Source: Escherichia coli (GTDB lineage Bacteria; Pseudomonadota; Gammaproteobacteria; Enterobacterales; Enterobacteriaceae). From it: a stretch of 60,030 nt of DNA. Shown one piece after another: positions 10,607-33,573 of this stretch; the stretch's first letter is position 1; each line of letters opens with the position of its first letter. A program made the translations under genes and the position numbers. The stretch lies in the NCBI RefSeq assembly GCF_003334785.1, contig NZ_QOWV01000021.1; one strand, given 5' to 3'. The notes under the pieces were generated by a model. The model made no database searches and was not told where the DNA came from. It saw only the letters and a program-made list of their open reading frames with translations.

Positions 10607-10621
10607 ATCATTAAACCTGGG

Positions 10622-10954
10622 TTACTGGCTGACTTTAATATCCTGTAATAAAGAAAGGTTGCCCTGCTGGACAAAATTAAACGCCACTTTGTCGCCGGTT
10701 TTAATTTCACTCATTTTCGTCTGCGGGGTGATGGTAAAGCGCATGGTCATCTCCGGCCAGTTCACGGCAGCAATCGGATCGTGATGGATGGTGATTTTTT
10801 TGCTTTCCAGATCAACACCTTTTACCACGCCAGTGGCGCTAATAACCTGCGGTTGTACTTCGCTCATGGTTTCATGATGATGTTCGTTAGCCTGGGCATT
10901 AAAGCCAATAACGGTAAACAGACTGAACATTGCGACTTGCAGTGCTTTTTTCAT
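10622..10954 (-). CDS. cusF: periplasmic Cu(I)/Ag(I) metallochaperone
   Basis: 110 aa with signal peptide and His/Met-rich segment (NEHHHETMSEVQ), small beta-barrel type. Confidence 0.92.
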   Translation of the reverse strand: MKKALQVAMFSLFTVIGFNAQANEHHHETMSEVQPQVISATGVVKGVDLESKKITIHHDPIAAVNWPEMTMRFTITPQTKMSEIKTGDKVAFNFVQQGNLSLLQDIKVSQ

Positions 10955-10980
10955 TTATTCTCTCCTGGAGTTAAAAATTA

Positions 10981-12360: not shown

Positions 12361-12429
12361 AGGCTCATAATTTCTGGTGATTTTATGCCGCCAACTTTAC
12401 TCGCCAGCCTCTGATTTTCCGGTGACAGG

Positions 12430-12451
12430 AAAATGACAAAATTGTCATTTT
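12430..12451. promoter_or_regulatory. CusR box: perfect palindrome AAAATGACAA-AA-TTGTCATTTT in the cusC/cusR divergent intergenic region
   Basis: Inverted repeat read directly from sequence; matches the known CusR operator between cusC and cusR. Confidence 0.85.
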
Positions 12452-12516
12452 GCCAATAAGCGATTGCCATCTGATCCCGCTACTCTAGAATTGCCCGGGC
12501 AACATGTGGAGGAAAT

Positions 12517-13200
12517 ATGAAACTGCTGATTGTCGAAGATGAAAAGAAAACCGGAGAATACTTGACCAAAGGGTTAACCGAAGCCGGTTTTGTGGTCGAT
12601 TTGGCCGACAACGGGCTGAATGGCTACCATCTGGCGATGACCGGAGATTATGACCTGATAATCCTCGATATTATGCTGCCGGACGTGAACGGCTGGGATA
12701 TCGTGCGCATGTTGCGCTCCGCCAATAAAGGGATGCCGATTCTGTTGCTTACCGCGCTTGGCACCATTGAACATCGCGTCAAGGGGCTGGAGTTGGGGGC
12801 CGATGACTATCTGGTGAAGCCGTTCGCTTTTGCTGAACTGCTGGCGCGGGTGCGCACTCTCCTGCGGCGCGGGGCGGCGGTGATTATCGAAAGTCAGTTT
12901 CAGGTTGCCGATCTGATGGTCGATCTCGTCAGCCGCAAAGTCACCCGCAGCGGCACGCGCATCACTCTGACCAGTAAAGAATTTACTCTGCTGGAGTTTT
13001 TCCTTCGCCATCAGGGCGAAGTGCTGCCCCGCTCGCTTATCGCCTCGCAGGTATGGGACATGAATTTCGACAGCGACACTAACGCCATTGATGTGGCGGT
13101 GAAGCGGCTACGCGGCAAAATCGACAACGACTTTGAGCCGAAGCTGATTCAAACCGTGCGCGGCGTGGGTTACATGCTTGAGGTGCCGGATGGTCAGTAA
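12517..13200 (+). CDS. cusR: OmpR-family response regulator for copper/silver
   Basis: 227 aa; receiver domain ([11 protein letters not shown]...) plus winged-helix output. Confidence 0.93.
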
Positions 13201-14632
13201 GCCATTTCAGCGCCCGTTTTCGCTGGCAACCCGCCTGACCTTTTTTATCAGCCTGGCCACCATCGCGGCGTTTTTCGCCTTTGCATGGATCATGATCCAC
13301 TCAGTAAAAGTGCATTTTGCCGAGCAGGATATTAATGATTTAAAAGAGATTAGCGCCACCCTTGAACGGGTACTAAATCACCCTGACGAAACGCAAGCCC
13401 GACGCTTAATGACGCTGGAAGATATCGTCAGTGGTTATTCCAATGTGTTGATTTCCCTGGCAGATAGTCAGGGTAAAACGGTGTATCACTCCCCCGGTGC
13501 GCCCGATATCCGCGAGTTTACGCGTGACGCCATACCCGATAAAGACGCGCGGGGCGGCGAGGTGTATCTCCTTTCCGGCCCGACGATTATGATGCCAGGG
13601 CACGGTCACGGGCATATGGAACACAGCAACTGGCGGATGATTAACTTACCGGTTGGCCCGCTGGTTGACGGCAAACCGATTTATACGCTCTACATCGCGC
13701 TTTCGATCGATTTTCATCTTCATTACATAAATGATTTGATGAATAAACTTATTATGACCGCATCGGTAATCAGCATCCTGATCGTCTTTATCGTGCTGTT
13801 GGCGGTACATAAAGGTCACGCGCCGATCCGCAGCGTCAGCCGTCAAATCCAGAATATTACCTCGAAAGATCTCGACGTTCGCCTTGACCCGCAGACCGTG
13901 CCCATTGAGCTGGAACAGCTGGTACTGTCGTTCAACCATATGATCGAGCGTATTGAGGATGTCTTTACCCGCCAGTCCAATTTCTCAGCGGATATCGCTC
14001 ACGAAATTCGCACACCAATTACGAATCTCATAACGCAAACCGAAATCGCCCTCAGCCAGTCGCGCAGCCAGAAGGAGCTGGAAGATGTGCTCTACTCTAA
14101 TCTCGAAGAGCTGACGCGAATGGCGAAAATGGTCAGCGATATGCTGTTTCTCGCTCAGGCCGATAACAACCAGCTAATCCCCGAAAAGAAAATGCTCAAC
14201 CTGGCGGATGAAGTCGGCAAAGTGTTCGATTTTTTCGAGGCGTTAGCGGAAGATCGCGGCGTGGAGTTGCGGTTTGTTGGCGACAAGTGTCAGGTCGCGG
14301 GCGATCCGCTGATGCTGCGTCGGGCGCTAAGCAACCTGCTTTCGAACGCCCTGCGTTATACGCCAACCGGAGAGACAATTGTAGTGCGCTGTCAGACGGT
14401 CGATCACCTGGTGCAAGTTATCGTCGAAAACCCCGGTACGCCCATTGCGCCCGAGCACTTACCGCGATTGTTTGACCGTTTCTATCGCGTTGACCCCTCC
14501 CGCCAGCGAAAAGGTGAAGGTAGCGGTATTGGCCTGGCGATAGTGAAATCGATTGTTGTCGCGCATAAAGGCACGGTTGCGGTAACGTCGGATGCGCGGG
14601 GGACAAGGTTTGTTATCACATTACCCGCTTAA
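13190..14632 (+). CDS. cusS: sensor histidine kinase for copper/silver
   Basis: ATG at 13190 overlaps the cusR stop; [19 protein letters not shown]..., two TM segments, H-box [10 protein letters not shown], ATPase motifs. Confidence 0.92.
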
Positions 14633-14781
14633 TCCTTCAGCAAACGGCAACTTTTATAACCAGTGTAAAAATAACGTGCCGCAATAGTCATACCTATTAA
14701 TGGTAAAAAGCTGTCACAATTCATAAAAAACCTTAATATACGCCACCCTAAACATAACCAGCGTTAATGTAAGGTTTTTGT

Positions 14782-17019
14782 GTGGACTGGCTTCTTGATG
14801 TTTTTGCTACCTGGCTCTACGGCTTAAAAGTAATCGCGATAACGTTAGCGGTCATCATGTTCATCAGCGGGCTGGACGATTTTTTTATTGATGTCGTCTA
14901 CTGGGTACGCCGCATTAAACGCAAGTTGAGTGTTTATCGCCGCTACCCGCGAATGAGTTACCGCGAACTGTATAAACCAGATGAAAAACCGTTAGCGATT
15001 ATGGTTCCGGCGTGGAATGAAACGGGCGTCATCGGCAATATGGCCGAGCTGGCGGCGACCACGCTCGACTACGAAAACTATCATATCTTTGTTGGCACCT
15101 ACCCCAACGCCCCCGATACTCAGCGTGATGTTGACGAAGTGTGCGCTCGCTTCCCGAATGTGCATAAGGTAGTCTGCGCGCGTCCTGGCCCCACCAGCAA
15201 AGCCGACTGTCTGAACAACGTGCTGGACGCCATCACCCAATTTGAGCGTAGCGCCAATTTCGCTTTTGCTGGTTTTATTCTGCATGACGCCGAAGATGTG
15301 ATTTCACCGATGGAATTGCGTCTGTTCAACTATCTGGTCGAGCGTAAAGATCTGATTCAGATCCCGGTGTATCCGTTCGAACGCGAATGGACGCACTTCA
15401 CCAGCATGACTTACATTGATGAGTTTTCAGAGCTGCATGGCAAAGATGTTCCGGTGCGTGAAGCCCTCGCCGGACAAGTGCCCAGCGCAGGCGTCGGCAC
15501 CTGTTTCAGCCGCCGCGCCGTGACCGCACTGTTAGCTGACGGTGACGGTATTGCTTTCGACGTGCAGAGTCTTACTGAAGATTACGACATTGGCTTCCGC
15601 CTGAAAGAAAAAGGTATGACGGAAATTTTTGTCCGTTTTCCGGTGGTGGACGAAGCCAAAGAACGCGAGCAGCGTAAATTTTTACAGCACGCGCGGACAT
15701 CAAACATGATCTGCGTGCGCGAATATTTCCCCGATACCTTTTCGACTGCGGTTCGACAAAAATCCCGCTGGATCATCGGCATTGTTTTCCAAGGCTTTAA
15801 AACCCATAAATGGACCTCCAGCCTGACGCTGAACTACTTTCTCTGGCGCGACCGCAAAGGGGCAATCAGTAACTTTGTCAGCTTCCTCGCGATGCTGGTG
15901 ATGATCCAGCTTTTGCTGTTGCTGGCGTATGAAAGTTTGTGGCCCGATGCCTGGCATTTCCTTTCTATTTTCAGCGGCAGCGCATGGTTAATGACCCTGC
16001 TGTGGCTAAACTTTGGTTTGATGGTTAACCGCATCGTGCAGCGGGTGATTTTCGTTACTGGCTACTACGGCCTGACGCAGGGGCTGCTTTCCGTCCTGCG
16101 TCTTTTCTGGGGCAACCTGATTAACTTCATGGCCAACTGGCGCGCGCTAAAACAGGTACTTCAACACGGCGATCCACGTCGCGTGGCGTGGGATAAAACA
16201 ACGCATGACTTCCCCAGCGTGACTGGCGATACCCGCTCGTTGCGCCCGTTAGGTCAAATTCTGCTGGAAAATCAGGTCATCACTGAAGAACAACTCGATA
16301 CAGCACTGCGTAATCGCGTCGAAGGTCTACGCCTGGGCGGTTCAATGCTGATGCAGGGGCTGATTAGCGCCGAGCAGCTGGCACAGGCGCTGGCAGAGCA
16401 AAACGGCGTGGCGTGGGAATCCATCGATGCCTGGCAGATCCCTTCCTCGCTGATTGCCGAAATGCCGGCCTCCGTGGCGCTGCATTATGCGGTACTGCCG
16501 CTGCGTCTGGAAAATGACGAGTTAATTGTCGGCAGTGAAGATGGTATTGACCCGGTTTCGCTGGCGGCCCTGACGCGTAAAGTCGGACGCAAAGTGCGTT
16601 ACGTCATTGTTCTGCGGGGACAAATTGTCACAGGGTTACGTCACTGGTATGCACGCCGACGCGGTCACGATCCGCGGGCAATGTTGTACAATGCGGTTCA
16701 GCATCAGTGGCTCACGGAACAGCAGGCCGGTGAAATCTGGCGGCAATATGTGCCGCATCAGTTCCTGTTCGCCGAAATACTGACCACGCTCGGTCATATT
16801 AATCGTTCAGCAATTAACGTGTTGTTATTGCGCCATGAACGCAGTTCTCTGCCGCTCGGCAAGTTTTTGGTCACCGAAGGCGTTATCAGCCAGGAAACGT
16901 TGGATCGCGTCCTGACAATTCAACGCGAATTACAAGTTTCGATGCAATCACTATTACTCAAAGCAGGTTTAAACACAGAACAGGTTGCGCAACTGGAGTC
17001 CGAAAATGAAGGAGAATAA
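14782..17019 (+). CDS. nfrB: inner-membrane family-2 glycosyltransferase with C-terminal MshEN-like repeats (phage N4 adsorption protein B)
   Basis: 745 aa, GTG start; N-terminal TM, glycosyltransferase core (DAEDV motif), two C-terminal GSPII-E-N/MshEN-like segments. Confidence 0.9.
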   Translation: MDWLLDVFATWLYGLKVIAITLAVIMFISGLDDFFIDVVYWVRRIKRKLSVYRRYPRMSYRELYKPDEKPLAIMVPAWNETGVIGNMAELAATTLDYENYHIFVGTYPNAPDTQRDVDEVCARFPNVHKVVCARPGPTSKADCLNNVLDAITQFERSANFAFAGFILHDAEDVISPMELRLFNYLVERKDLIQIPVYPFEREWTHFTSMTYIDEFSELHGKDVPVREALAGQVPSAGVGTCFSRRAVTALLADGDGIAFDVQSLTEDYDIGFRLKEKGMTEIFVRFPVVDEAKEREQRKFLQHARTSNMICVREYFPDTFSTAVRQKSRWIIGIVFQGFKTHKWTSSLTLNYFLWRDRKGAISNFVSFLAMLVMIQLLLLLAYESLWPDAWHFLSIFSGSAWLMTLLWLNFGLMVNRIVQRVIFVTGYYGLTQGLLSVLRLFWGNLINFMANWRALKQVLQHGDPRRVAWDKTTHDFPSVTGDTRSLRPLGQILLENQVITEEQLDTALRNRVEGLRLGGSMLMQGLISAEQLAQALAEQNGVAWESIDAWQIPSSLIAEMPASVALHYAVLPLRLENDELIVGSEDGIDPVSLAALTRKVGRKVRYVIVLRGQIVTGLRHWYARRRGHDPRAMLYNAVQHQWLTEQQAGEIWRQYVPHQFLFAEILTTLGHINRSAINVLLLRHERSSLPLGKFLVTEGVISQETLDRVLTIQRELQVSMQSLLLKAGLNTEQVAQLESENEGE

Positions 17020-19978
17020 CCTTAATCGCGTCATCGGATGGTCTGGTTTACTGCTGACGTCTTTATTGAGTACCAGCGCACTCGCAGACAATATCGGCAC
17101 CAGCGCAGAAGAGCTGGGGCTGAGCGATTATCGCCATTTTGTTATTTATCCCCGTCTCGATAAAGCGCTGAAGGCACAGAAAAATAACGACGAAGCAACC
17201 GCCATCCGCGAATTTGAATATATACACCAGCAGGTGCCGGATAATATTCCGCTGACTTTATACCTTGCGGAAGCCTATCGCCATTTTGGTCATGATGACC
17301 GGGCGCGGCTGTTGCTTGAGGATCAACTGAAACGTCACCCAGGAGATGCCCGACTTGAGCGCAGTCTGGCGGCTATTCCGGTTGAAGTGAAAAGCGTTAC
17401 GACAGTTGAAGAACTGCTTGCCCAGCAAAAAGCGTGCGATGCTGCGCCGACCCTGCGTTGTCGCAGTGAAGTCGGGCAGAATGCCCTGCGGCTGGCACAG
17501 TTACCTGTCGCCAGAGCGCAACTGAACGATGCGACGTTTGCTGCATCGCCGGAAGGAAAAACGCTGCGAACCGATCTGCTGCAACGGGCAATCTACCTGA
17601 AACAATGGTCCCAGGCAGATACGCTATACAATGAAGCACGCCAGCAGAACACATTAAGCGCGGCAGAACGCCGTCAGTGGTTTGACGTGCTTCTTGCCGG
17701 GCAGCTGGACGATCGGATCCTGGCACTGCAATCACAGGGGATCTTCACCGATCCTCAGTCATATATTACTTACGCGACCGCGCTGGCTTATCGTGGCGAA
17801 AAAGCACGCCTCCAGCATTATCTCATTGAAAATAAGCCACTATTTACCACGGACGCACAAGAGAAAAGTTGGCTCTATCTGTTATCTAAATACAGCGCTA
17901 ACCCCGTTCAGGCGTTGGCGAATTATACGGTACAGTTTGCCGACAACCGCCAGTATGTTGTTGGCGCGACGCTACCGGTGCTGTTAAAAGAAGGTCAGTA
18001 CGACGCAGCGCAAAAACTGCTCGCCACCCTCCCCGCCAATGAAATGCTTGAGGAGCGTTATGCTGTCAGCGTGGCGACCCGTAACAAGGCTGAAGCTCTG
18101 CGTCTGGCACGATTGCTGTATCAGCAAGAACCGGCAAATCTTACCCGCCTGGATCAACTAACCTGGCAACTGATGCAGAACGAGCAGTCACGCGAAGCTG
18201 CCGATTTATTGCTGCAACGCTATCCTTTCCAGGGCGATGCGCGTGTCAGCCAGACTTTAATGGCGCGACTGGCGTCTCTGCTGGAAAGTCATCCTTACCT
18301 GGCAACGCCGGCGAAGGTGGCGATTTTATCGAAACCCTTACCGCTGGCGGAGCAACGTCAGTGGCAAAGTCAGTTGCCGGGTATTGCAGATAATTGCCCG
18401 GCAATAGTTCGCTTGCTGGGCGATATGTCGCCTTCCTACGATGCCGCCGCCTGGAACCGTCTGGCAAAGTGTTATCGGGACACGCTAACCGGTGTGGCGT
18501 TGTATGCATGGCTTCAGGCCGAACAACGACAACCGAGCGCCTGGCAACATCGTGCGGTAGCCTATCAGGCGTATCAGGTTGAGGACTACGCCACCGCACT
18601 GGCGGCCTGGCAGAAAATCAGTCTTCACGACATGAGCAATGAGGATCTGCTTGCTGCTGCCAATACCGCCCAGGCGGCAGGAAATGGTGCGGCTCGCGAT
18701 CGCTGGCTACAACAGGCAGAAAAACGTGGACTGGGAAGCAATGCCCTCTACTGGTGGCTGCATGCGCAACGTTACATTCCTGGTCAGCCGGAACTCGCAC
18801 TGAACGATCTCACGCGCTCAATCAATATTGCGCCTTCTGCCAACGCTTACGTTGCGCGGGCGACAATTTATCGCCAACGTCATAATGTCCCGGCCGCGGT
18901 GAGTGATTTGCGCGCCGCGCTGGAACTGGAACCGAATAATAGCAACACCCAGGCAGCGCTTGGTTACGCCTTGTGGGATAGCGGTGATATCGCACAGTCG
19001 CGGGAAATGCTCGAACCGGCGCATAAAGGGCTTCCGGACGATCCGGCACTGATCCGACAACTGGCCTACGTGAACCAGCGTCTGGATGACATGCCTGCGA
19101 CGCAGCACTACGCCCGGCTGGTGATTGATGACATTGATAATCAGGCGCTGATAACCCCACTGACCCCAGAACAAAATCAACAACGCTTCAATTTCCGCCG
19201 TTTGCATGAGGAGGTCGGTCGCCGCTGGACGTTCAGTTTCGATTCTTCCATCGGCTTGCGTTCCGGCGCAATGAGTACCGCTAACAATAATGTCGGCGGC
19301 GCAGCGCCAGGGAAAAGCTATCGTAGCTACGGACAACTGGAAGCCGAGTACCGCATCGGACGCAATATGCTGCTGGAAGGCGACCTGCTCTCAGTTTATA
19401 GCCGCGTCTTTGCCGATACCGGAGAAAACGGGGTGATGATGCCGGTGAAAAATCCGATGTCCGGCACCGGTCTGCGCTGGAAGCCGCTGCGCGATCAGAT
19501 CTTTTTCATCGCCGTCGAACAGCAGTTGCCGCTGAACGGCCAAAATGGCGCATCCGATACCATGCTGCGCGCCAGCGCCTCATTCTTTAATGGCGGCAAA
19601 TACAGCGACGAATGGCACCCGAACGGTTCAGGCTGGTTTGCCCAAAACCTGTACCTCGATGCGGCGCAATATATCCGCCAGGATATTCAGGCGTGGACGG
19701 CAGATTATCGCGTCAGCTGGCATCAGAAGGTAGCTAACGGACAGACTATTGAGCCTTACGCTCACGTTCAGGACAACGGCTATCGTGATAAAGGCACTCA
19801 GGGCGCGCAGCTTGGCGGAGTCGGGGTCCGCTGGAATATCTGGACCGGCGAGACGCACTACGACGCCTGGCCGCACAAAGTCAGTCTCGGCGTCGAGTAT
19901 CAACATACCTTTAAGGCGATTAATCAACGTAACGGAGAGCGCAACAACGCGTTTCTCACCATTGGAGTGCACTGGTAA
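17006..19978 (+). CDS. nfrA: outer-membrane protein with TPR repeats (phage N4 adsorption protein A)
   Basis: ATG at 17006 (MKENNLNRVIGWSGLLLTSLLSTSALA, signal peptide), 990 aa; overlaps nfrB stop; C-terminus ends in aromatic residue typical of OM beta-barrels. Confidence 0.9.
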   Translation: MKENNLNRVIGWSGLLLTSLLSTSALADNIGTSAEELGLSDYRHFVIYPRLDKALKAQKNNDEATAIREFEYIHQQVPDNIPLTLYLAEAYRHFGHDDRARLLLEDQLKRHPGDARLERSLAAIPVEVKSVTTVEELLAQQKACDAAPTLRCRSEVGQNALRLAQLPVARAQLNDATFAASPEGKTLRTDLLQRAIYLKQWSQADTLYNEARQQNTLSAAERRQWFDVLLAGQLDDRILALQSQGIFTDPQSYITYATALAYRGEKARLQHYLIENKPLFTTDAQEKSWLYLLSKYSANPVQALANYTVQFADNRQYVVGATLPVLLKEGQYDAAQKLLATLPANEMLEERYAVSVATRNKAEALRLARLLYQQEPANLTRLDQLTWQLMQNEQSREAADLLLQRYPFQGDARVSQTLMARLASLLESHPYLATPAKVAILSKPLPLAEQRQWQSQLPGIADNCPAIVRLLGDMSPSYDAAAWNRLAKCYRDTLTGVALYAWLQAEQRQPSAWQHRAVAYQAYQVEDYATALAAWQKISLHDMSNEDLLAAANTAQAAGNGAARDRWLQQAEKRGLGSNALYWWLHAQRYIPGQPELALNDLTRSINIAPSANAYVARATIYRQRHNVPAAVSDLRAALELEPNNSNTQAALGYALWDSGDIAQSREMLEPAHKGLPDDPALIRQLAYVNQRLDDMPATQHYARLVIDDIDNQALITPLTPEQNQQRFNFRRLHEEVGRRWTFSFDSSIGLRSGAMSTANNNVGGAAPGKSYRSYGQLEAEYRIGRNMLLEGDLLSVYSRVFADTGENGVMMPVKNPMSGTGLRWKPLRDQIFFIAVEQQLPLNGQNGASDTMLRASASFFNGGKYSDEWHPNGSGWFAQNLYLDAAQYIRQDIQAWTADYRVSWHQKVANGQTIEPYAHVQDNGYRDKGTQGAQLGGVGVRWNIWTGETHYDAWPHKVSLGVEYQHTFKAINQRNGERNNAFLTIGVHW

Positions 19979-20869
19979 ATGCGTAAGTTCATTTTCGTAT
20001 TGCTGACACTGCTTTTGGTCAGCCCTTTTTCCTTTGCGATGAAAGGTATTATCTGGCAACCACAAAACCGAGATAGTCAGGTTACCGATACCCAGTGGCA
20101 GGGGCTGATGAGTCAGTTACGTTTGCAAGGCTTCGATACCCTTGTTTTGCAATGGACCCGTTACGGCGATGCATTTACCCAGCCAGAACAGCGCACGTTA
20201 TTGTTTAAGCGGGCCGCAGCTGCGCAACAGGCTGGTCTGAAGCTTATTGTCGGGCTGAACGCCGATCCGGAATTTTTTATGCACCAGAAACAGTCGTCCG
20301 CAGCGCTGGAAAGCTATCTTAATCGCCTGCTGGCTGCCGATCTCCAGCAAGCCAGATTATGGAGCGCCGCGCCTGGCATAACGCCGGATGGCTGGTACAT
20401 CAGCGCGGAAATTGACGACCTGAACTGGCGCAGCGAAGCCGCCCGTCAGCCTTTGCTAACATGGTTAAACAACGCGCAGCGGCTGATTAGCGATGTTTCA
20501 GCAAAACCGGTTTATATCAGTAGTTTTTTCGCCGGAAACATGTCGCCCGATGGCTATCGCCAACTGCTGGAACACGTTAAAGCAACCGGCGTTAATGTCT
20601 GGGTACAGGATGGCAGCGGCGTGGATAAACTGACCGCTGAACAGCGTGAACGTTATTTACAGGCCAGCGCCGATTGCCAAAGTCCCGCCCCTGCCAGCGG
20701 CGTTGTTTATGAACTTTTTGTCGCCGGCAAAGGCAAAACCTTTACAGCGAAACCGAAACCGGACGCAGAAATTGCCTCGCTGTTAGCGAAACGTTCCTCT
20801 TGCGGTAAAGACACTCTCTATTTCTCTCTGCGCTATTTGCCCGTCGCGCACGGCATTCTCGAGTATTAA
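19979..20869 (+). CDS. ybcH: periplasmic protein YbcH (third gene of nfrB-nfrA-ybcH unit)
   Basis: 296 aa with signal peptide (MRKFIFVLLTLLLVSPFSFA); ATG immediately follows the nfrA stop (TAAATG). Confidence 0.85.
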   Translation: MRKFIFVLLTLLLVSPFSFAMKGIIWQPQNRDSQVTDTQWQGLMSQLRLQGFDTLVLQWTRYGDAFTQPEQRTLLFKRAAAAQQAGLKLIVGLNADPEFFMHQKQSSAALESYLNRLLAADLQQARLWSAAPGITPDGWYISAEIDDLNWRSEAARQPLLTWLNNAQRLISDVSAKPVYISSFFAGNMSPDGYRQLLEHVKATGVNVWVQDGSGVDKLTAEQRERYLQASADCQSPAPASGVVYELFVAGKGKTFTAKPKPDAEIASLLAKRSSCGKDTLYFSLRYLPVAHGILEY

Positions 20870-21051
20870 ATCTCCTCCAGGTAAGTCGGGTACGACCTGG
20901 CTTACCTCTTTCGCTCTCATCAGAATTCCATCAAGATTAATTGCTAAAAAGCGTGCTAAAGAAAGAAGATCGTTATCGGCGAACGGGCCGATCACTCATG
21001 CAGGAAGCATAGATCCTTTGAGCGGAGTTTCTGATATCTGAGGAGTGCGAA

Positions 21052-21813
21052 ATGCAATTGAGCAGCAGTGAACCTTGCGTGGTGATCCTGACCGAAAAAG
21101 AGGTAGAGGTAAGCGTCAATAACCATGCTACGTTTACCCTTCCGAAAAACTACCTGGCCGCCTTCGCGTGCAACAATAACGTCATTGAACTCTCAACGTT
21201 AAATCACGTATTAATCACCCACATCAACCGTAACATCATCAACGATTATCTGTTGTTTTTAAATAAGAACTTAACCTGTGTAAAGCCCTGGTCGCGGCTG
21301 GCAACCCCGGTTATCGCTTGTCATAGCCGTACACCGGAAGTGTTCCGGCTAGCCGCCAACCACAGCAAGCAGCAACCCAGCAGACCCTGCGAAGCGGAGT
21401 TGACGCGCGCATTGCTTTTTACCGTATTGTCTAACTTTCTTGAGCAATCGCGGTTTATTGCCCTACTGATGTATATCTTACGCAGCAGCGTCCGCGACAG
21501 CGTCTGCCGCATTATTCAAAGCGATATTCAGCATTACTGGAATCTGCGAATTGTCGCCAGTTCGCTATGTTTAAGCCCCAGCCTGCTCAAAAAGAAATTA
21601 AAAAACGAAAATACCAGCTATAGCCAGATTGTCACAGAGTGTCGTATGCGTTACGCCGTACAGATGTTATTGATGGATAACAAAAATATCACTCAGGTGG
21701 CGCAATTATGTGGCTATAGCAGCACGTCGTACTTTATCTCTGTTTTTAAGGCGTTTTACGGCCTGACACCGTTGAATTATCTCGCCAAACAGCGACAAAA
21801 AGTGATGTGGTGA
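21052..21813 (+). CDS. envY: AraC-family transcriptional regulator
   Basis: 253 aa, C-terminal AraC HTH (YSSTSYFISVFKAFYGLTPLNY); visibly AT-rich gene. Confidence 0.85.
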   Translation: MQLSSSEPCVVILTEKEVEVSVNNHATFTLPKNYLAAFACNNNVIELSTLNHVLITHINRNIINDYLLFLNKNLTCVKPWSRLATPVIACHSRTPEVFRLAANHSKQQPSRPCEAELTRALLFTVLSNFLEQSRFIALLMYILRSSVRDSVCRIIQSDIQHYWNLRIVASSLCLSPSLLKKKLKNENTSYSQIVTECRMRYAVQMLLMDNKNITQVAQLCGYSSTSYFISVFKAFYGLTPLNYLAKQRQKVMW

Positions 21814-21858
21814 AGGGCAAAGCGGAAACGGATAAGACGGGCATAAATGAGGAAGAAA

Positions 21859-21935
21859 TGGCGCGCCCTGCAGGATTCGAACCTGCGGCCCACGACTTAG
21901 AAGGTCGTTGCTCTATCCAACTGAGCTAAGGGCGC
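21859..21935 (-). tRNA. argU: tRNA-Arg (anticodon UCU, reads AGA)
   Basis: Reverse complement gives GCGCCCTTAGCTCAGTTGGATAGAGCAACGACCTTCTAAGTCGTGGGCCGCAGGTTCGAATCCTGCAGGGCGCGCCA: cloverleaf-compatible, anticodon loop CTTCTAA, T-arm GGTTCGAATCC, encoded CCA. Confidence 0.95.
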
Positions 21936-22177
21936 GTTGATACCGCAATGCGGTGTAATCGCGTGAATTATACGGTCAACCCTTGCTGAGTCAATGGCTT
22001 TTGATCTGGTTGCTGAACAAGTGAACGACCGCGTCTGATTTTCTGATTTATTTCGCTATAGCGGCAAACAAACGCACACCGCTGCGCGTCTGAATCAAGA
22101 AAACCCGTATTTTCATGTATCAAAGTACAATTTCCCGACCTAACGGAAAATTGTCCGCTCCTATGAGACTGGTAACT

Positions 22178-22810
22178 ATGAAACCAACGTCGGTGATCAT
22201 TATGGATACTCATCCTATCATCAGAATGTCTATTGAAGTTCTGTTGCAAAAAAACAGTGAATTGCAGATTGTCCTGAAAACGGATGATTATCGCATAACC
22301 ATCGATTATCTCCGAACCCGTCCTGTTGATTTAATCATTATGGATATAGACTTGCCCGGAACAGACGGTTTTACCTTCCTGAAAAGGATCAAACAAATCC
22401 AGAGCACAGTGAAAGTGTTATTTTTATCATCGAAATCAGAATGCTTTTATGCTGGCAGAGCGATACAAGCTGGTGCTAACGGTTTTGTCAGTAAATGCAA
22501 TGATCAGAATGATATTTTTCATGCCGTTCAGATGATCCTCTCCGGATACACGTTTTTTCCCAGCGAAACGCTTAACTATATAAAAAGCAATAAATGTAGT
22601 ACGAATAGTTCAACGGTCACTGTGCTATCTAATCGTGAAGTGACCATATTACGTTATCTGGTTAGCGGATTATCTAATAAAGAAATTGCCGATAAGTTAT
22701 TACTTAGCAATAAAACAGTTAGTGCGCATAAATCTAATATTTATGGCAAGCTAGGTTTGCATTCAATTGTAGAGCTTATCGACTACGCCAAATTATACGA
22801 ATTAATATAA
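22178..22810 (+). CDS. fimZ: LuxR/FixJ-family response regulator of fimbrial expression
   Basis: Track ORF 22115..22810 trimmed to ATG 22178 (MKPTSVIIMDTHPIIRMSIEVLLQ..., 210 aa); receiver domain plus C-terminal LuxR HTH; contains AGA/AGG/ATA rare codons. Confidence 0.88.
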   Translation: MKPTSVIIMDTHPIIRMSIEVLLQKNSELQIVLKTDDYRITIDYLRTRPVDLIIMDIDLPGTDGFTFLKRIKQIQSTVKVLFLSSKSECFYAGRAIQAGANGFVSKCNDQNDIFHAVQMILSGYTFFPSETLNYIKSNKCSTNSSTVTVLSNREVTILRYLVSGLSNKEIADKLLLSNKTVSAHKSNIYGKLGLHSIVELIDYAKLYELI

Positions 22811-22812
22811 TA

Positions 22813-23328
22813 TTAATTATAATTGATCATAAATATCGCATCCGCTTTCGCCACACCTGGCCGAACACCGCTGGCTAACGCTCGATAATTGGCAAAAAAG
22901 TTTAGTGTGACATTGCCATTTGCATCTACTTCCTCAGTCGGGCTCGCCTCCCCCAGTGCGAGCCGGGAGCGATCGCTATTACGTAATTCGATGGCGACGG
23001 TTTGTGCCATTGCGGGATCATCCAGAGCCAGCAGGTTGGTATCGGATGCCGGCGTTCCCGTAAATAAAATCGCAACTGAACCCGGAGGACATCCCTCCAG
23101 CCGCAGGCTAAAAGGGACGAGTGCCGTGGTATCGCCAGCGTTCAGTAGTTGTGTCGTAGGCCATCTGCCTAAATCTACCGTCTTATCAATATCCGCTGTG
23201 TTTACGGTACAGGAGAAATCAACAACGTTACCGTGCAAATTGATATTAATCGTTCCTAAAGGGTCAACTGCCCATCCACTGGAACTCCACAGTAGCCCGC
23301 AGAAACAGCTAAAGAGTACTCTTCTCAT
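22813..23328 (-). CDS. sfmF: minor fimbrial subunit (FimF-like)
   Basis: Track ORF 22813..23523 overlaps sfmH; trimmed to ATG 23328 (MRRVLFSCFCGLLWSSSGWA signal peptide, 171 aa); pilin-type C-terminus. Confidence 0.85.
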   Translation of the reverse strand: MRRVLFSCFCGLLWSSSGWAVDPLGTININLHGNVVDFSCTVNTADIDKTVDLGRWPTTQLLNAGDTTALVPFSLRLEGCPPGSVAILFTGTPASDTNLLALDDPAMAQTVAIELRNSDRSRLALGEASPTEEVDANGNVTLNFFANYRALASGVRPGVAKADAIFMINYN

Positions 23329-23338
23329 TCTCCGTACC

Positions 23339-24346
23339 TCATTGATAATCGACGCGTAAATACCCCAGCGCGCTAAACGGCCCTTCGGTCGGTTTTTGAC
23401 CGGTAATACTGATAGGCCAGGCGCGAAGTGTGACATTGGCTGCCGCAGCTGCATCCAGACGGAAAGGAATAACGCTATTGAGATCGTTAGGCGTGATCGG
23501 CGTATCGTTCTGATCGGCGACAATAAAACCTAAATCCTGATTGTCCGACACCATCGCCTGACCAGAAACGGCACTGGCTTCCAGACGCATTGTTAAATAA
23601 GCCTGCGCAGCAACATTCGTACATTTGACCGCAATGCTCTTGGTTTGCGGCATGACACCAGCAGGTCGATTACCCGGCCCTGCCGCACTAAATAACGATG
23701 CGCCGATATCACCAAAATCAAATTCAACAATCTGCCCGGCATTTAATTCGCAGTTTTGCGGTACTTCAACCCGGCCACCAAAACTAATGGTATAAACAGG
23801 TGTAACCAACGGATCGTAAGGCGTTGATGTCACATACACGGTAAACATCACCTGTCTGGGGATCTCCACCATGTTAATAAAGGGACGAATAACCTTTAAA
23901 CGAAATATTAAACGAGAATCCATCACCCCGAATGGAAGGTTTTGCGAAACGTTAGGATCTGTTCCCATCCGAATATAATTTTGCGGGGGGAACTGAATAT
24001 CCATAACACTATCAACCAGACTCATCGCACCTAATAGATAATCATTTAATTGCATATATTTATAATTATCGATAGTTTCCTGAACAATAAAGTTGGTGAC
24101 ATAACTACGGTATGTATAATTCACCAGCGTGCCGGGTGGACAAATTGCTGAGACACCTACCCAGCCGGATTTTTCCGGTAAAACAACAATCTGCCCTGGC
24201 TGGTTATTGGTGCTATTAAAGATATTTGAGAGATCATAGTGTTCATCTTCTGCTACGCCAGTACTATTTGCACAAACAGTAGCCCAGGATATGTTTGCCA
24301 GACACAAACATGCCATCGCCAATAATAATCTGCAGATTATCTTCAT
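23339..24346 (-). CDS. sfmH: fimbrial adhesin-like subunit (FimH-like)
   Basis: 335 aa with signal peptide and C-terminal pilin domain; position after usher; exact start uncertain. Confidence 0.82.
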   Translation of the reverse strand: MKIICRLLLAMACLCLANISWATVCANSTGVAEDEHYDLSNIFNSTNNQPGQIVVLPEKSGWVGVSAICPPGTLVNYTYRSYVTNFIVQETIDNYKYMQLNDYLLGAMSLVDSVMDIQFPPQNYIRMGTDPNVSQNLPFGVMDSRLIFRLKVIRPFINMVEIPRQVMFTVYVTSTPYDPLVTPVYTISFGGRVEVPQNCELNAGQIVEFDFGDIGASLFSAAGPGNRPAGVMPQTKSIAVKCTNVAAQAYLTMRLEASAVSGQAMVSDNQDLGFIVADQNDTPITPNDLNSVIPFRLDAAAAANVTLRAWPISITGQKPTEGPFSALGYLRVDYQ

Positions 24347-24358
24347 TGATAATTTCCT

Positions 24359-26968
24359 TTATGAGCCAGGATGTGTGCAAACTGCCGAAATAACAGTGAC
24401 GGCTTGCTGTAAGCTTTGCTTCGGCAATACATAGTGCGCAATGCAGCGTGAGTTCGCGCCGTCTCCCCACTGAACCAGTAATTCACCAGACAATGGCGCA
24501 CCACTTAAATAAACTTGCCCGTCATCACCCACCATACTGGTTATTCCGGTACTGTTTTCCCGTACCAGTGATCCAAACGGCACCGGTTTTCCGCCCTGGG
24601 TAACGGTAATGAGCGCCCGCACGCCTATGCGGGTATCAAAATTGGCACGAACCAACGCGCCTTGCGTCGGCACAACGCTGCTAATATTTTTTTCAACATC
24701 GATGGAATTCCCCATCGTATTGGTATCAAGCGCGATACGGTTATACCGATAAACCGTGGCATACGGCATCACCGCATAGCCGCGCCAGTCGGTTAAAATG
24801 CCAGTTTGATTTTCAATGCGTACACCGCCTGCGCCAGGCGCTTTAATCAAAACATTGGTATCCCCTAAAGGCTGGCTCAGCGTTATGCCATTTTCATGCC
24901 CGACCACACCGCCAGACAGCTGCCAGTTAACGTCATGTTGATCGCGGTCGTAGTTATACCCGACCCCCAGCGTACCGTAAGCGGCCTGCCAGTTTGCCGT
25001 GGCGCTGCCCGTATACCCATTATTCGAGGTATCACCCTGGCTTACGTGATAACTCAGGTTGTGGCCTTCCAGTAAGGTCCCACCTACACCTGCCAGCCAG
25101 CTATTTTGCCCGTTGCTGTTACGGTTGGCGTTAAAGGAGGCATAAGCGCGGTCGAGCGCATTTTCCCGGGTGTAGCGACGTTTGGTCAGAACATTGAAAG
25201 GCACTGAAACATTAAGTCCGACAATACATTCGTTATCGGGGATCCCTACAGATTCATTCCACGAAAATGAGAGCGAATAACTGATGCCAACCCAGCTGCT
25301 GGTATACCCCACCTGATACCACGTATCTGAATCCGATGTATTCCAGTATTTTTGATGGGTACCAGAGATATAAAGCGAGCCAAAGTCATTAAGTGATTGT
25401 GAAATATTTAACTGCAAACGGTCTTTACGGCTAAAGCGTAAATTGTGGTAATTCACGATTATCGGTTCATCGCGATGCTCACCGTCGTAATCGTAATCAT
25501 ATTCGTACCCCTCCATTCGACGATACGCAACATCATCAAGGGTATAAAAACCTTGTGTCGAATAGCGGTAACCCATTAACTGAAAATTGGTGCCGAAGGT
25601 GTTCATCGATTTCGCATAGAGGAAGCGAATAGAATCCCCCTCATGACGACTATCGTCGGCTAACTGACTGCGCGCATGGGTCACATCCAGCGACACTGCG
25701 CCCCAGTTCCCGAGGTTGCGCCCCAGCCCTAATAAAAAGGCGGTGTAATTGGCAGATAATTGCGTCCCGCCGTAGGCAGTAAATTCCTGTGGTAAACCGC
25801 CGAGTACCGTGCCCTGAAAAAAGAAAGGCGATGATTGCTGACTATTACCGCTACGAAAATCGCCCCCCGTCAGGTCAAATTTGAAACGCCCTTCGCGTTG
25901 TAAAATTGGCACTGTTGAATACGGAATAGTGTAATTCTGCTGATTGCCATCGCGCTCGTCGATGGTGACGTCCAGATCGCCATTTGAAGATGTCGGGTGC
26001 AAATCTGTAATTTCAAAAGCGCCGGGGGAAACATAGCTTTGATAGATAATAAAACCATTTTGCCGAATCGTTAGCTGGGCCGCCGTACGGGCAATCCCAC
26101 GTACTGTTGGGGCAAACCCTTGCTGGCTATCAGGATACATATTATCGGAAGAGTAAAGCCGTACACCACGAAATCCAACACCATCGAAAATATCACTTCC
26201 TGTATTGCCGTCTCCCATTACCAGTTCACTTTTCAGCGGAATAATGGCGCGCTGTACCCAGGTGCCAATATTATTCCACTGTTCTGAATGATACCCATTT
26301 CCGCGAAAATAGTTCCAGGAACCATTGTTGCGTAAACGCCACGGGCCAATATTAATCCCGCTGAGCTCACTAAAAAAATAGCTATCGTTACCATTACCTC
26401 TGTTACCAGTGAAATTATAATTCAGGAGTAAAGCAGGAATACCTTCATCCCACTCTTCAGGCGGAATGTAACCGTGAGCGCTACTCAACAACGCTATCTG
26501 AGGAATAGTGATGTTCAGGCGCATCGCTGCAAAATCAAAGTTAATTGTGGCATCAGGTACAGCTTTCAGTAAATTGATGCATTTATTATTTTGCTGCTGG
26601 GCTAACTCGGGAAATGCACTGCTATTAAGGCCAATTCGTTCAAGGAGTACCTGGTTAAAACAGGGCATTAACCCACCTGATTTATCACCTGTATTTTCTG
26701 TTGTCGATTCAAATACGATATCCTGTGAACCAATGAACTCATCATTACGCCAGAGATCCACCCGATACACGCCCGCAGGTTGATGATTACCTCTCTCAAA
26801 GCGCGATAAATCAGCAACGGATGTGCCATTCTCTAATAAAAATGCCGGGTTGAAATAACTTTCCGCATAGCTTAAAAAGGAGGGTAAAATGGCAAGAGAT
26901 GAATAACAAATTCCGGCCAGACACCAGGTATACCTCTGCGGAATATCCGTAGTAGTGGGTATTTTCAT
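24359..26968 (-). CDS. sfmD: fimbrial outer-membrane usher
   Basis: 869 aa usher-family protein; exact start codon uncertain within a few codons. Confidence 0.9.
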
Positions 26969-26998
26969 AATTAGCTCTGATATTGTCAGATGATTCGG

Positions 26999-27691
26999 TT
27001 AGTTTAAGTTCACTTCTCTGACCGGGGTTACTGAACCATAATCATTAACGGTCTGAAATTTCAGCTTTCCCTGCACTCCTGAGGGTAAGGGAATTTGTGA
27101 ATTAACTCTGGGTGCAGCCATAGCATTCCCCAACTTTTGGCTGCCCACTTGTAAGTTAACCAGGGTGACATAAAAAGGTGATGGATTATGAACATTGATA
27201 TAGTTACCGGATCGCGAAAACTTGAGTGTGTCCGGCGCTTCTGCGGGTAATTCTTGTAATTGAATTGGACGGAGAAATAACTTCATGCGCGATAAAATCG
27301 CCAGTTGCAAAACATTCCTGCCGTTCAATGCATTTTTATCTACCGAAGGGATCGTCTTAACATTCATCCAGAACAGAGACTCACGATCTGCCGCCAGCGG
27401 TGGACCGGTGTAAATAATACGCAAAGTATTTTCGCTTTTGGGTTCACTAACAAATAGTGGCGGTGTAATGATGAATGACTTTTCTTTTACACCGCTGCTG
27501 TTTTCAATCCACGAATTGACCAGAAAACGCTCATTGGTATGGCTATTTCTAATCCATACCGCAGTCTGTTTAGCATCAGCGGGATAAATAATACGCGTGG
27601 CACCTAATGCGATCCCTCCGGCAGCATGGGCGCTGGCCGAAATGATTAAATAAAATATAATGAGCATCAATAACTTTATTTTAGTCATCAT
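26999..27691 (-). CDS. sfmC: periplasmic fimbrial chaperone (PapD-like)
   Basis: 230 aa, signal peptide, chaperone fold motifs. Confidence 0.9.
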
Positions 27692-27910
27692 AGTTAATAC
27701 GCCTTGTGTATTCCTGACGGCAAAAATAAGAAATATAAAGAAATGATTGCTTTGGTTTCTTACAACACATCATTCCCTTTTCATTTAATAAAGCGGCATG
27801 ATACAAAGTGAACATGATTTCGATTTACATTGCCACCATACCGCTTCAGACAACCGGTACATTACTTTGTTATAAGACGTGATATATAATTCAAAACAAC
27901 GTGGTTTTGA

Positions 27911-28453
27911 TTATTCGTATCTCATAATAAAAGTCGCGTCAGCATTTGCTTGCCCTGCTGATGCACTTGTACCGGTGCCTTTATAACGTGCAGAAAAATG
28001 AAGAACGTTGGTCCCGGGGATCAAGTTCTGGTTGGTTGAGAAGCTATTCCCATCAGGTTTGAGAATTGCGGATGTATTATCAAGTATTTCAATACCGACA
28101 CCCGTTGCTGTTGTTGTATTGGTACTGGATGCAATGGCCAATAAATTATCATTGATTGCATCAGCCTGACCAGAAAATGCAACGGCAGCATTAGCGGCAA
28201 CAACAGGATCGCAGTCGTTCAACTGAATGGTGAATGGAATTAATGCAGAGGTATTACCAACAGCATTGAAAATATCGGTACGATATTGACCGAGTGTGAC
28301 AACTTGGTCTGCCGAGTCAGTATTCACTGAACAGGCAGCATTCACCAGTTCGCCTTCAAAGTGAATTGTACCGCCATCTACAACGGCAGCATAACTACCC
28401 GTAGCGGCGAATAGTGCGGCAGCCAGCGCAGACGAAATAAATCTTAATTTCAT
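27911..28453 (-). CDS. sfmA: major type-1-like fimbrial subunit
   Basis: Track ORF trimmed to ATG 28453 ([22 protein letters not shown] signal peptide; 180 aa); AAGGA Shine-Dalgarno upstream. Confidence 0.88.
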
Positions 28454-28932
28454 ATATATTCCTTCAATCTCATTTATCGACTCCACATCCGTATATAACC
28501 GATTACTTTATTTAAGACACTGATAGTAGTAAATTCCTTTTTATCCTCTAAGAATGTCTTAATTGAAAATATGCACTCTATTCTAAAAAATAGAGAGCCC
28601 CGTTAGATGAATACTTCCGCGCAAAATATATTCAACACAAATATAGACCTGAAGCGGTAAATTACCAGGCTGAAAATTCTTTTTATATTGTCAGGTATTT
28701 CTTAAATTATCTTAATCCTTAGACAAGGAAATAAGTCAGTTCCAGATTTACAACGCCATCATGGACGAAAAATGAAGCTTTCAATCTCAGCGACCTCAGC
28801 GACGGTGCGCCTAACCTTCGCAAGAGGTCGCTTCACGTGATAAATCTGAAACGAAACCTGACAGCGCGCCCCGCTTCTGACAAAATAGGCGCATCCCCTT
28901 CGACCTACGTAACAGATGGAATCCTCTCTCTG

Positions 28933-29799
28933 ATGGCAGCAAAGATTATTGACGGTAAAACGATTGCGCAGCAGGTGCGCTCTGAAGTTGCTCAAAAAGT
29001 TCAGGCGCGTATTGCAGCCGGACTGCGGGCACCAGGACTGGCCGTTGTGCTGGTGGGTAGTAACCCTGCATCGCAAATTTATGTCGCAAGCAAACGCAAG
29101 GCTTGTGAAGAAGTCGGGTTCGTCTCCCGCTCTTATGACCTCCCGGAAACCACCAGCGAAGCGGAGCTGCTGGAGCTTATCGATGCGCTGAATGCCGACA
29201 ACACCATTGATGGCATTCTGGTTCAACTGCCGTTACCGGCGGGTATTGATAACGTCAAAGTACTGGAACGTATTCACCCGGACAAAGACGTAGACGGTTT
29301 CCATCCTTATAACGTCGGTCGCCTGTGCCAGCGCGCGCCGCGTCTGCGTCCCTGCACCCCGCGCGGCATCGTCACGCTGCTTGAGCGTTACAACATTGAT
29401 ACCTTCGGCCTCAACGCCGTGGTGATTGGCGCATCGAATATCGTTGGCCGCCCGATGAGCATGGAACTGCTGCTAGCAGGTTGCACCACTACCGTGACTC
29501 ACCGCTTCACTAAAAATCTGCGTCATCACGTAGAAAATGCCGATCTGTTGATCGTTGCCGTCGGCAAGCCGGGCTTTATTCCTGGTGACTGGATCAAAGA
29601 AGGCGCAATTGTGATTGATGTCGGCATCAACCGTCTGGAAAATGGCAAAGTTGTGGGCGACGTGGTGTTTGAAGACGCGGCTAAACGCGCCTCATACATT
29701 ACGCCTGTTCCCGGCGGCGTTGGCCCGATGACGGTTGCCACGCTGATTGAAAACACGCTACAGGCGTGCGTTGAATATCATGATCCACAGGGTGAGTAA
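28933..29799 (+). CDS. folD: bifunctional 5,10-methylene-tetrahydrofolate dehydrogenase / cyclohydrolase
   Basis: Track ORF trimmed to ATG 28933 ([19 protein letters not shown]..., 288 aa). Confidence 0.93.
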
Positions 29800-29800
29800 C

Positions 29801-30013
29801 ATGGCGACATTTTCTTTAGGTAAACATCCGCACGTTGAGCTGTGCGACTTGCTGAAACTGGAAGGCTGGAGCGAAAGCGGCGCGCAGGCGAAAATCGCGA
29901 TTGCCGAAGGCCAGGTGAAAGTCGATGGCGCGGTTGAAACGCGCAAACGCTGCAAAATCGTCGCCGGTCAGACAGTGAGTTTTGCAGGTCACAGCGTACA
30001 GGTTGTTGCCTGA
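29801..30013 (+). CDS. ybcJ: S4-domain RNA-binding protein
   Basis: ATG at 29801, 2 nt after folD stop; MATFSLGKHPHVELCDLLKLEGW... (70 aa). Confidence 0.85.
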   Translation: MATFSLGKHPHVELCDLLKLEGWSESGAQAKIAIAEGQVKVDGAVETRKRCKIVAGQTVSFAGHSVQVVA

Positions 30014-30120
30014 TCCCTTTCCCGGCCTGTATCAACAGGCCGGTTCTCTTTTCAGACTTTTGCCCTCTACGCCCCGTTCATCCATGCTGATAGCATCGAC
30101 ATTTTGCCGAAGCGACCATC

Positions 30121-30642
30121 ATGCCAACCGTTATTACGCACGCCGCCGTTCCCCTATGCATTGGTTTAGGGTTGGGTTCGAAAGTCATCCCTCCGCGTCT
30201 GTTATTTGCCGGAATCATCCTGGCGATGCTGCCCGACGCCGACGTATTGTCGTTTAAATTTGGCATTGCTTACGGCAATGTTTTTGGTCATCGCGGGTTT
30301 ACCCATTCGCTGGTGTTTGCGTTTGTTGTCCCGCTGTTATGTGTGCTGATTGGACGCCGATGGTTCAGGGCTGGGCTGATTCGCTGCTGGCTGTTTTTAA
30401 CCGTCTCGTTGCTATCGCACAGCTTGCTGGATTCGGTAACCACTGGCGGTAAAGGGGTTGGCTGGCTGTGGCCGTGGTCAGATGAACGCTTTTTCGCTCC
30501 CTGGCAGGTGATTAAAGTCGCGCCGTTTGCATTGTCTCGTTACACCACGCCGTACGGGCATCAGGTGATTATTTCTGAATTGATGTGGGTGTGGTTGCCG
30601 GGGATTCTACTGATGGGAATGTTGTGGTGGCACAGACGATAA
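30121..30642 (+). CDS. ybcI: inner-membrane metal-dependent hydrolase-like protein (DUF457)
   Basis: 173 aa hydrophobic protein with conserved His residues. Confidence 0.8.
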   Translation: MPTVITHAAVPLCIGLGLGSKVIPPRLLFAGIILAMLPDADVLSFKFGIAYGNVFGHRGFTHSLVFAFVVPLLCVLIGRRWFRAGLIRCWLFLTVSLLSHSLLDSVTTGGKGVGWLWPWSDERFFAPWQVIKVAPFALSRYTTPYGHQVIISELMWVWLPGILLMGMLWWHRR

Positions 30643-30666
30643 CCGGATGCGAAAACTCGCATCCGG
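30643..30666. terminator. hairpin ccggatgcgaaaactcgcatccgg between convergent ybcI and cysS
   Basis: Perfect inverted repeat CCGGATGCG/CGCATCCGG seen directly in sequence. Confidence 0.6.
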
Positions 30667-30677
30667 CAATAGCGCAA

Positions 30678-32063
30678 TTACTTACGACGCCAGGTGGTCC
30701 CTTGCGGGCCATCTTCCAGCACGATCCCCATCTCGTTAAGACGGTCACGCGCCGCATCTGCCGCCGCCCAGTCTTTCGCTTTACGGGCATCCAGACGCTG
30801 TTGAATTAACGCTTCAATCTCAGCCACTTCGCTGCCGTCTGCCTGCGCGCCGCTTTGCAGGAACGCTTCCGGTTCTTGCTCCAGCAGGCCCAATACAGCG
30901 GAAAGTTTACGCAGGTGAGATGCCATTGCATTCGCCGCTGCCATATCTTCTGCTTTCAGACGGTTCACTTCACGCGCCATATCAAACAGCACGGAATAGG
31001 CTTCCGGGGTGTTGAAATCGTCGTCCATCGCTTCAATAAAGCGCGCTTCAAACGCTTCGCCACCGGCAGGCGCAACGGTTTTATCGGTGCCGCGCAGCGC
31101 AGTGTAGAGACGCTCCAGCGCCGCACGCGCCTGCTTCAGGTTCTCTTCGCTGTAGTTCAGCTGGCTGCGATAGTGGCCCGACATCAGGAAGTAACGCACG
31201 GTTTCAGCATCGTAGTATTTCAGCACATCGCGCACGGTAAAGAAGTTACCCAGCGATTTGGACATCTTCTCGCGGTCAACCATCACCATTCCGGAGTGCA
31301 TCCAGTAGTTAACATACTGACCATCATGGGCACAGGTGGACTGCGCGATTTCGTTCTCGTGGTGCGGGAACATCAGGTCTGAACCGCCGCCGTGGATATC
31401 AAAGTGGTTACCCAGCTGCTTGCAGTTCATTGCCGAACATTCAATGTGCCAGCCTGGACGGCCCGCGCCCCACGGAGACGGCCAGCTCGGTTCGCCCTCT
31501 TTCGACATCTTCCACAGAACGAAGTCCATCGGGTTGCGTTTGTCGTCGACCACGTCAACGCGCGCGCCTGCCTGCAGCTGGTCGAGATCCTGACGCGACA
31601 GCACGCCATATGTCGGATCGGTCGGGACGTCGAACATCACGTCGCCGTTGTCCGCCACATAAGCGTGACCTTTGGCGATCAGTTGTTCAGTGAGTTCAAT
31701 AATTTCTGCGATATGGTGCGTCGCGCGCGGCTCCATATCCGGGCGCAGAATGTTCAACGCATCAAAATCTTTGTGCATTTCGGCGATCATGCGATCCACC
31801 AGCGCTACAAAGCTTTCGCCATTTTCATTGGCGCGTTTGATGATTTTGTCGTCGATATCGGTAATGTTGCGCACATACTTCAGCTTATAGCCGAGGAAAC
31901 GCAGATAGCGCGCAACCACGTCAAAAGCAACAAAGGTACGCCCGTGACCGATATGACAGAGATCGTAAACGGTGATTCCACACACGTACATGCCGACTTC
32001 CCCGGCGTGAATAGGCTTAAATTCCTCTTTTTGGCGTGTCAGAGTATTGAAGATTTTTAGCAT
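30678..32063 (-). CDS. cysS: cysteinyl-tRNA synthetase
   Basis: 461 aa; class I aaRS HIGH motif (CHIGHGRT) and KMSKS. Confidence 0.95.
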
Positions 32064-32236
32064 CGAAGATTCCGTTTAGACATGTGTGGGTAATTGAGTT
32101 GCGTATAATACCCATATTTCCCGCGCGAATCAGCATACATTGCGTGATGATCCGATCGTGCGGTTATGCTATAACACCACCCTATATATGACCCGAACCG
32201 GGTTGAAGCACCAATCAAACGGAACAGGATGCAAAA

Positions 32237-32731
32237 ATGGTTACTTTCCACACCAATCACGGCGATATTGTCATCAAAACTTTTGACGATAAAGCACCTG
32301 AAACAGTTAAAAACTTCCTGGACTACTGCCGCGAAGGTTTTTACAACAACACCATTTTCCACCGTGTTATCAACGGCTTTATGATTCAGGGCGGCGGTTT
32401 TGAACCGGGCATGAAACAAAAAGCCACCAAAGAACCGATCAAAAACGAAGCCAACAACGGTCTGAAAAATACCCGTGGTACGCTGGCAATGGCCCGTACT
32501 CAGGCTCCGCACTCTGCAACTGCACAGTTCTTCATCAACGTGGTTGATAACGACTTCCTGAACTTCTCTGGCGAAAGCCTGCAAGGTTGGGGCTACTGCG
32601 TGTTTGCTGAAGTGGTTGAAGGCATGGACGTGGTAGACAAAATCAAAGGTGTTGCAACCGGTCGTAGCGGTATGCACCAGGACGTGCCAAAAGAAGACGT
32701 TATCATTGAAAGCGTGACCGTTAGCGAGTAA
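32237..32731 (+). CDS. ppiB: peptidyl-prolyl cis-trans isomerase B (cyclophilin)
   Basis: 164 aa cyclophilin ([16 protein letters not shown]...[15 protein letters not shown]). Confidence 0.95.
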
Positions 32732-32733
32732 TC

Positions 32734-33456: not shown

Positions 33457-33486
33457 AAAACCCGCAACTTTGCTGATTTCACAGCC

Positions 33487-33502: not shown

Positions 33503-33573
33503 TACTCTCTTTCCGTGCTATTCTCTGTGCCCTCTAAAGCCGAGAGTTGTGCACCACAGGAGTTTTAAGACGC

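Follow-up and report, generated by a model that had tools for sequence, protein, structure and literature searches.

Positions 21857..21903 of the Escherichia coli DNA analysed here (the window, meaning the whole stretch of 60,030 nucleotides) are, we are highly confident, an unoccupied attachment site (attB) in the 3′ part of the tRNA gene argU, of the kind targeted by lambdoid phages of the DLP12/2G7b type. In E. coli K-12 MG1655 the corresponding site holds the cryptic prophage DLP12 together with appY and ompT. The site of the window can be considered a scar-free attB because it contains a single copy of the attachment core and because the DNA around it is colinear with that of K-12 once the prophage island is subtracted.

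The tRNA gene is intact and is the sole tRNA of the whole window: ARAGORN predicts a tRNA-Arg(TCT) at 21859..21935 on the minus strand, and the Rfam tRNA model matches 21862..21935 with a score of 72 bits. It is convergent with envY, whose stop codon ends at 21813. The distance between them, put at about 45 bp in the preliminary description, is exactly 45 bp, and a search of this spacer (21814..21858) for a terminator-like site for argU found none. On the other side of the gene, a promoter-like site (Table 1) is identical in K-12. As reference annotation we used that of a RefSeq genome 99.989% identical to positions 1..46900 of the window, in which the neighbours are annotated in the order nfrB, nfrA, ybcH, envY, tRNA-Arg, fimZ, sfmF, sfmH and sfmD. 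Neither the list of open reading frames nor this annotation places an integrase, an excisionase or a phage gene in the interval between argU and envY, and we found neither phage-derived bases in the 45-bp spacer nor a diverged second copy of the argU 3′ end. The 47-bp core (CTTCTAAGTCGTGGGCCGCAGGTTCGAATCCTGCAGGGCGCGCCATT) has no second copy in the 60-kb window when up to three mismatches are allowed, chance copies being expected at none. A repeat search of positions 20800..23000 returned short chance-level matches only, none of which involves the tRNA and none of which is tRNA-related near envY. The partial duplicate of the argU 3′ end that had been suggested as a possible attR remnant near envY is thus missing at this level of mismatch, and the site is clean. 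Prophage remnants in the interval, which the preliminary description had named as an observation that would speak against an empty site, are likewise absent.

Comparison with K-12 MG1655 defines the junction. The MG1655 order is sfmD-sfmH-sfmF-fimZ-argU-[intD ... appY-ompT]-envY-ybcH-nfrA-nfrB, with 21.3 kb between argU and envY, and the arrangement argU, DLP12, appY, ompT, envY, as initially given, matches this record. The argU attB and the DLP12 attL and attR of K-12 were reportedly described by Lindsey, Mullin and Walker in 1989. The K-12 segment that carries DLP12, appY and ompT has an exact 47-bp direct repeat at its two ends: the attL copy spans the 3′-terminal 45 nt of argU and 2 nt beyond it, and the attR copy lies between ompT and envY. 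A search inside the island for further att copies, as in tandem integrations, with a 25-mer and up to three mismatches returned the two terminal copies only. The core of the window is identical to both of them (47/47). We then built a ‘virtual attB’ from the K-12 left flank, one core and the K-12 right flank; it is colinear with window positions 26665..15960 at 99.66% identity. From 15960 to 24004 (~8 kb) the window and K-12 differ by a single SNP, at 18488, with no gap or mismatch in 18489-24004, and the 45-bp spacer is the sequence found to the right of attR in K-12. When the K-12 island DNA, ompT and appY included, was compared with the 60-kb window by blastn, there were zero matches. The open reading frames, this blastn comparison and the 47-mer search all agree with the original statement that the locus has no integrase, att duplication or phage genes. 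The proposed alignment of genomes with and without DLP12 resolves the junction to the 47-bp core, and the view of the segment as an empty or cleanly deleted site holds base for base, as K-12 left flank, one core and right flank.

Table 1. Coordinates of the features of the window and of the sequences compared with it.
Feature	Sequence	Position	Strand	Basis
argU, tRNA-Arg(UCU), intact	Window	21859..21935	-	ARAGORN and Rfam
45-bp spacer, envY stop codon to argU 3′ end	Window	21814..21858		Read off the sequence
attB core, 47 bp (argU 3′ 45 nt and 2 nt downstream)	Window	21857..21903	-	
Promoter-like site upstream of argU, TTGACT-16-TATAAT, 11/12 matches	Window	21967..21994	-	Consensus scan only
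envY, AraC-family regulator, 253 aa	Window	21052..21813	+	ORF list; annotation of near-identical genome
fimZ, LuxR-type response regulator; flanks argU on the left, in K-12 too	Window	22178..22810	+	
sok antitoxin RNA, hokE/sokE locus at the start of the window	Window	241..396	-	Rfam, above gathering score
STnc480 and ES036 sRNAs between allE and glxK	Window	43420..43486, 43512..43554	-	Rfam, above gathering score
‘Cryptic prophage DLP12’	K-12 MG1655	564755..586056		Annotation of the MG1655 record
attL copy of the 47-mer	K-12 MG1655	564755-564801		
attR copy of the 47-mer	K-12 MG1655	586057-586103		
Hydrolase-ompT module	Phage 2G7b (segment examined)	1625..4224		
Hydrolase-ompT module	Phage PhiR26_1 (segment examined)	1625..3047		
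Hydrolase-ompT pair in prophage remnant near minCDE	O157:H7 86-24 (segment examined)	7330..9954		
Region of argU and the decayed remnant that follows it	TUM13066 (segment examined)	10480..14394		

Thirteen phage records also contain the 47-mer at 100% identity, those of 2G7b, ev243, Kati, Turner and seven PhiR phages (PhiR26_1 among them); 2G7b and ev243 each count twice, as both have a GenBank as well as a RefSeq accession. The Salmonella phages SEN22 and BIS08P22 carry it at 95.7% identity. The gene order in 2G7b is alpha/beta hydrolase-ompT-[47-mer]-integrase, and PhiR26_1 also has ompT beside the 47-mer. The 2G7b integrase is identical to K-12 IntD at 385/387 positions (99%), and in silico recombination of the 2G7b attP with the attB of the window yields a product that equals the K-12 attL at 346/347 positions and the K-12 attR at 344/347. 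We noticed that in the records of Kati (PP925833.1) and Turner (PP925837.1) the 47-bp core, a fragment of tRNA-Arg, is labelled ‘tRNA-Pro’; this label probably reflects a mis-annotated partial tRNA.

These features suggest how the two states of the locus could be connected. Lambdoid phages of the DLP12/2G7b type carry a 47-bp attP sited between the integrase gene and the ompT cargo, and the phage tyrosine integrase would recombine it with the attB core. Integration would restore an intact argU at attL, beside int, whereas attR, which adjoins ompT and, beyond it, envY, would keep a partial copy of 47 bp. In the strain of the window, integration would either never have occurred or have been exactly undone by recombination between attL and attR. 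Both courses lead to what the window shows: argU and envY convergent and 45 bp apart, with no DLP12, appY or ompT at the locus. The identity of its core with those of the phages and of K-12 suggests that the attB of the window may be functionally competent.

To place this site within the species, we counted the states of the locus in 5,426 complete E. coli genomes, the sample for all counts given here. The empty site, recognized as a contiguous 272-bp junction, is present in 2,538 of them (46.8%), and argU is followed by an intD-type integrase in 2,881. These two counts add up to 5,419 of the 5,426 genomes, and the locus is therefore essentially biallelic. A K-12-type attR (ompT-side arm, core and envY) was found in 1,616/5,426 genomes, whereas envY is present in 4,171/5,426 and ompT, anywhere in the genome, in 3,095/5,426. 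Over the 25 kb around the site, many natural isolates match the window at 100% identity; their sources are humans, dogs, pigs, birds and wastewater, and old NCTC strains are among them. A third layout, folD-argU-int remnant-tail fibre remnant-methyltransferase-ompT-ybcH, is seen in the B2-like genome TUM13066, which is devoid of the sfm operon, fimZ and envY; here a decayed remnant of ~3 kb after argU, with an integrase pseudogene, a tail-fibre fragment, the methyltransferase and ompT, abuts ybcH. It was previously reported that DLP12 inserts at the 3′ end of argU, with an attR of 47 bp, and that its presence or absence varies among strains (PMC6379469, Ramisetty and Sudhakari 2019); in that survey, DLP12 occupied the argU locus in 74% of 638 strains. 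The empty argU site is an ordinary and frequent polymorphism that has already been published.

The distribution of ompT deserves separate mention. We regard this gene as phage cargo because it adjoins attP in lambdoid phages that integrate in argU; from its position beside attP it follows that it lies beside attR and envY in lysogens and is missing from the window. In argU-type lambdoid phages, an alpha/beta-hydrolase gene and ompT form a module directly beside attP (Table 1). E. coli O157:H7 is empty at argU, and an O157:H7 genome, that of strain 86-24, has ompT in a prophage remnant near minCDE, within the same hydrolase-ompT pair. A strain with an empty argU site therefore need not be OmpT-negative. 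The number of ompT-positive genomes, 3,095, also exceeds that of genomes without the empty site, 2,888, which fits the presence of ompT at other loci. The initial proposal that the strain lacks OmpT is thus correct for the argU locus and does not extend to the genome as a whole.

More than one history could have left the site of the window empty. Compared with K-12, the window has the structure of a recombination mosaic over its whole length (1..60030). Near-identical blocks, with 0-1 differences per 2 kb (1-5500, ~14000-24004 and 40000-58000), stand beside blocks diverged by 1-2% (6000-14000, with the cus operon, and 24005-40000, from sfmH to purK), the latter two containing 481 differences in all. 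The junction is inside a near-identical block, with 3 differences from K-12 in ~10 kb, so that one local haplotype exists both with a decayed DLP12, in K-12, and without it, in the window. Such a block fits a recent loss of the decayed DLP12, an allele replacement by homologous recombination, or an import of DLP12 into the K-12 lineage. We consider it possible, though somewhat short of an even chance, that the site once held a DLP12-like prophage which left by a precise attL x attR exit, mediated either by the integrase or by RecA acting between the 47-bp repeats. The near identity of the block speaks for such an exit, as the DLP12 of K-12 is heavily decayed, carrying inserted IS3 and IS5 elements as well as several pseudogenes, a decay that is probably older than the divergence of the two haplotypes. 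Moreover, the K-12 intD is full length and its product is 99% identical to the integrase of a live phage. Our search of the literature for primary evidence of DLP12 excision yielded only a second-hand statement, that Hha induces it (PMC4632033), and a 2008 paper without direct demonstration. However, xisD is a pseudogene in K-12, and a precise excision and a never-occupied site have the identical sequence, so that the window is equally compatible with both. The empty allele, found in nearly half of the genomes, O157:H7 included, could also be old and exchangeable by homologous recombination, and the mosaic structure of the window is in line with such exchange. A tentative proposal, which we rate as rather unlikely, is that precise excision of the decayed, xis-defective DLP12 produced the empty site of this K-12-like block. 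If true, it would mean that ‘grounded’ cryptic prophages still exit cleanly in nature, and that the loss of OmpT and AppY is recurrent, and possibly selected, in commensal lineages of phylogroup A.

The same closeness to K-12, with one mismatch in ~8 kb of immediate flanks, might recall a K-12 derivative from which DLP12 was deleted by engineering or in the laboratory, such as a reduced-genome or prophage-cured strain. We rejected this origin, which has practically no probability left, because the window is elsewhere diverged from K-12 by 1-2% and because the 25 kb around the site are shared without a difference by natural isolates; there is also no FRT or other scar at the junction. Another reading holds that the site is not truly empty, envY itself being a remnant of the cargo of an older argU island. 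The preliminary description had called envY visibly AT-rich and placed it where island cargo would be. Its GC content is indeed mildly low (46.3%, against 50.6% for the window), but fimZ, with 36.7%, is well below envY and more AT-rich than any other gene close to the site. The gene is also accessory in the species, as seen from the counts above, and is missing in the B2-like genome in which ompT abuts ybcH. Nevertheless, the cargo of a mobile element is expected between its att repeats, and envY, which does not differ between the window and K-12, is situated to the right of attR in K-12, outside the repeats of DLP12; it is for this reason not cargo of the DLP12 element, and the suggestion as to its position is weak. 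No att-like repeat was found beyond envY in the window. The gene has a GC3 of 59%, and in 4,007 genomes its conservation exceeds 99%. An older island with envY as its remnant thus appears improbable, and we retain the reading of the site as an unoccupied attB. A cross-species scan with one genome per species, for the argU 3′ end followed by a gap of 35-60 nt and the C-terminal codons of envY, gave a single match, in a 3.5-kb contig of a ‘Collinsella sp.’ MAG (JAIJJM010000316.1). This contig carries a K-12-type attR junction of E. coli (ompT-side arm, 47-bp core and envY end); almost certainly, it is E. coli DNA that was mis-binned into an actinobacterial MAG.

Several other differences from K-12 were observed in the window. 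The start of sfmH (24344..24346, minus strand) is an intact ATG that opens a 335-aa SfmH reading frame at 23339..24346, whereas K-12 has a 1-nt deletion inside this ATG (AATAAG, as compared with AATGAAG in the window), which fits the shorter sfmH annotated in K-12. In sfmD there is a 6-bp indel relative to K-12 at 25493..25498. The cusC-cusF spacer (~10976..10984) is without an insert of ~130 bp present in K-12 (NC_000913 596977-597108). This insert contains ATGTAAGCTCCTGGGGATTCAC, the ERIC/IRU repeat consensus. Finally, we counted 57 differences from K-12 over the 2 kb at the end of the window (58000..60030), which cover the C-terminal tip of rhsD, ybbC and ylbH; two 212-bp segments there form a pair that matches K-12 at 87%. 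Rhs toxin and immunity tips are variable, and divergence of this kind is typical of them.

The finding matters little beyond bookkeeping, as both the 47-bp attR and the presence/absence polymorphism were already published (PMC6379469). For an annotator, it indicates that the strain has a free attB in argU, at which lysogeny by ompT-carrying lambdoid phages is probable judging from the sequence. The genes borne by DLP12 (appY, ompT, emrE, the lysis cassette and others) are absent at the argU locus, which for ompT is no proof of its absence from the genome.

Among known systems, the DLP12 site of K-12 is the closest to that of the window, with the same gene, the same 47-bp core and the same flanks (fimZ on one side, envY-ybcH-nfrA on the other). 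K-12 has two copies of the core, 21.3 kb apart, around intD...appY-ompT, whereas the window has one copy and no prophage, and can be described as the unrecombined form of the K-12 argU/DLP12 site. E. coli O157:H7 shows the same empty layout, fimZ-argU-45 bp-envY-ybcH-nfrA, with a spacer that differs by two SNPs. The phages 2G7b (Nesevirus), ev243, PhiR26_1, Kati and Turner have an identical core, but theirs are the phage partner sites, of which the window has none; 2G7b combines an integrase nearly that of DLP12, IntD, with ompT directly beside attP. In the Salmonella phage epsilon34, the argU attP measures 43 bp, and the closest relative of the integrase is that of DLP12, at ~80% identity (PMC2629481). 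Like the DLP12 type, epsilon34, SEN22 and BIS08P22 target the 3′ part of argU, although in a different host genus, and the virion of epsilon34 is P22-like, in contrast to the lambda-like virion of the DLP12 type.
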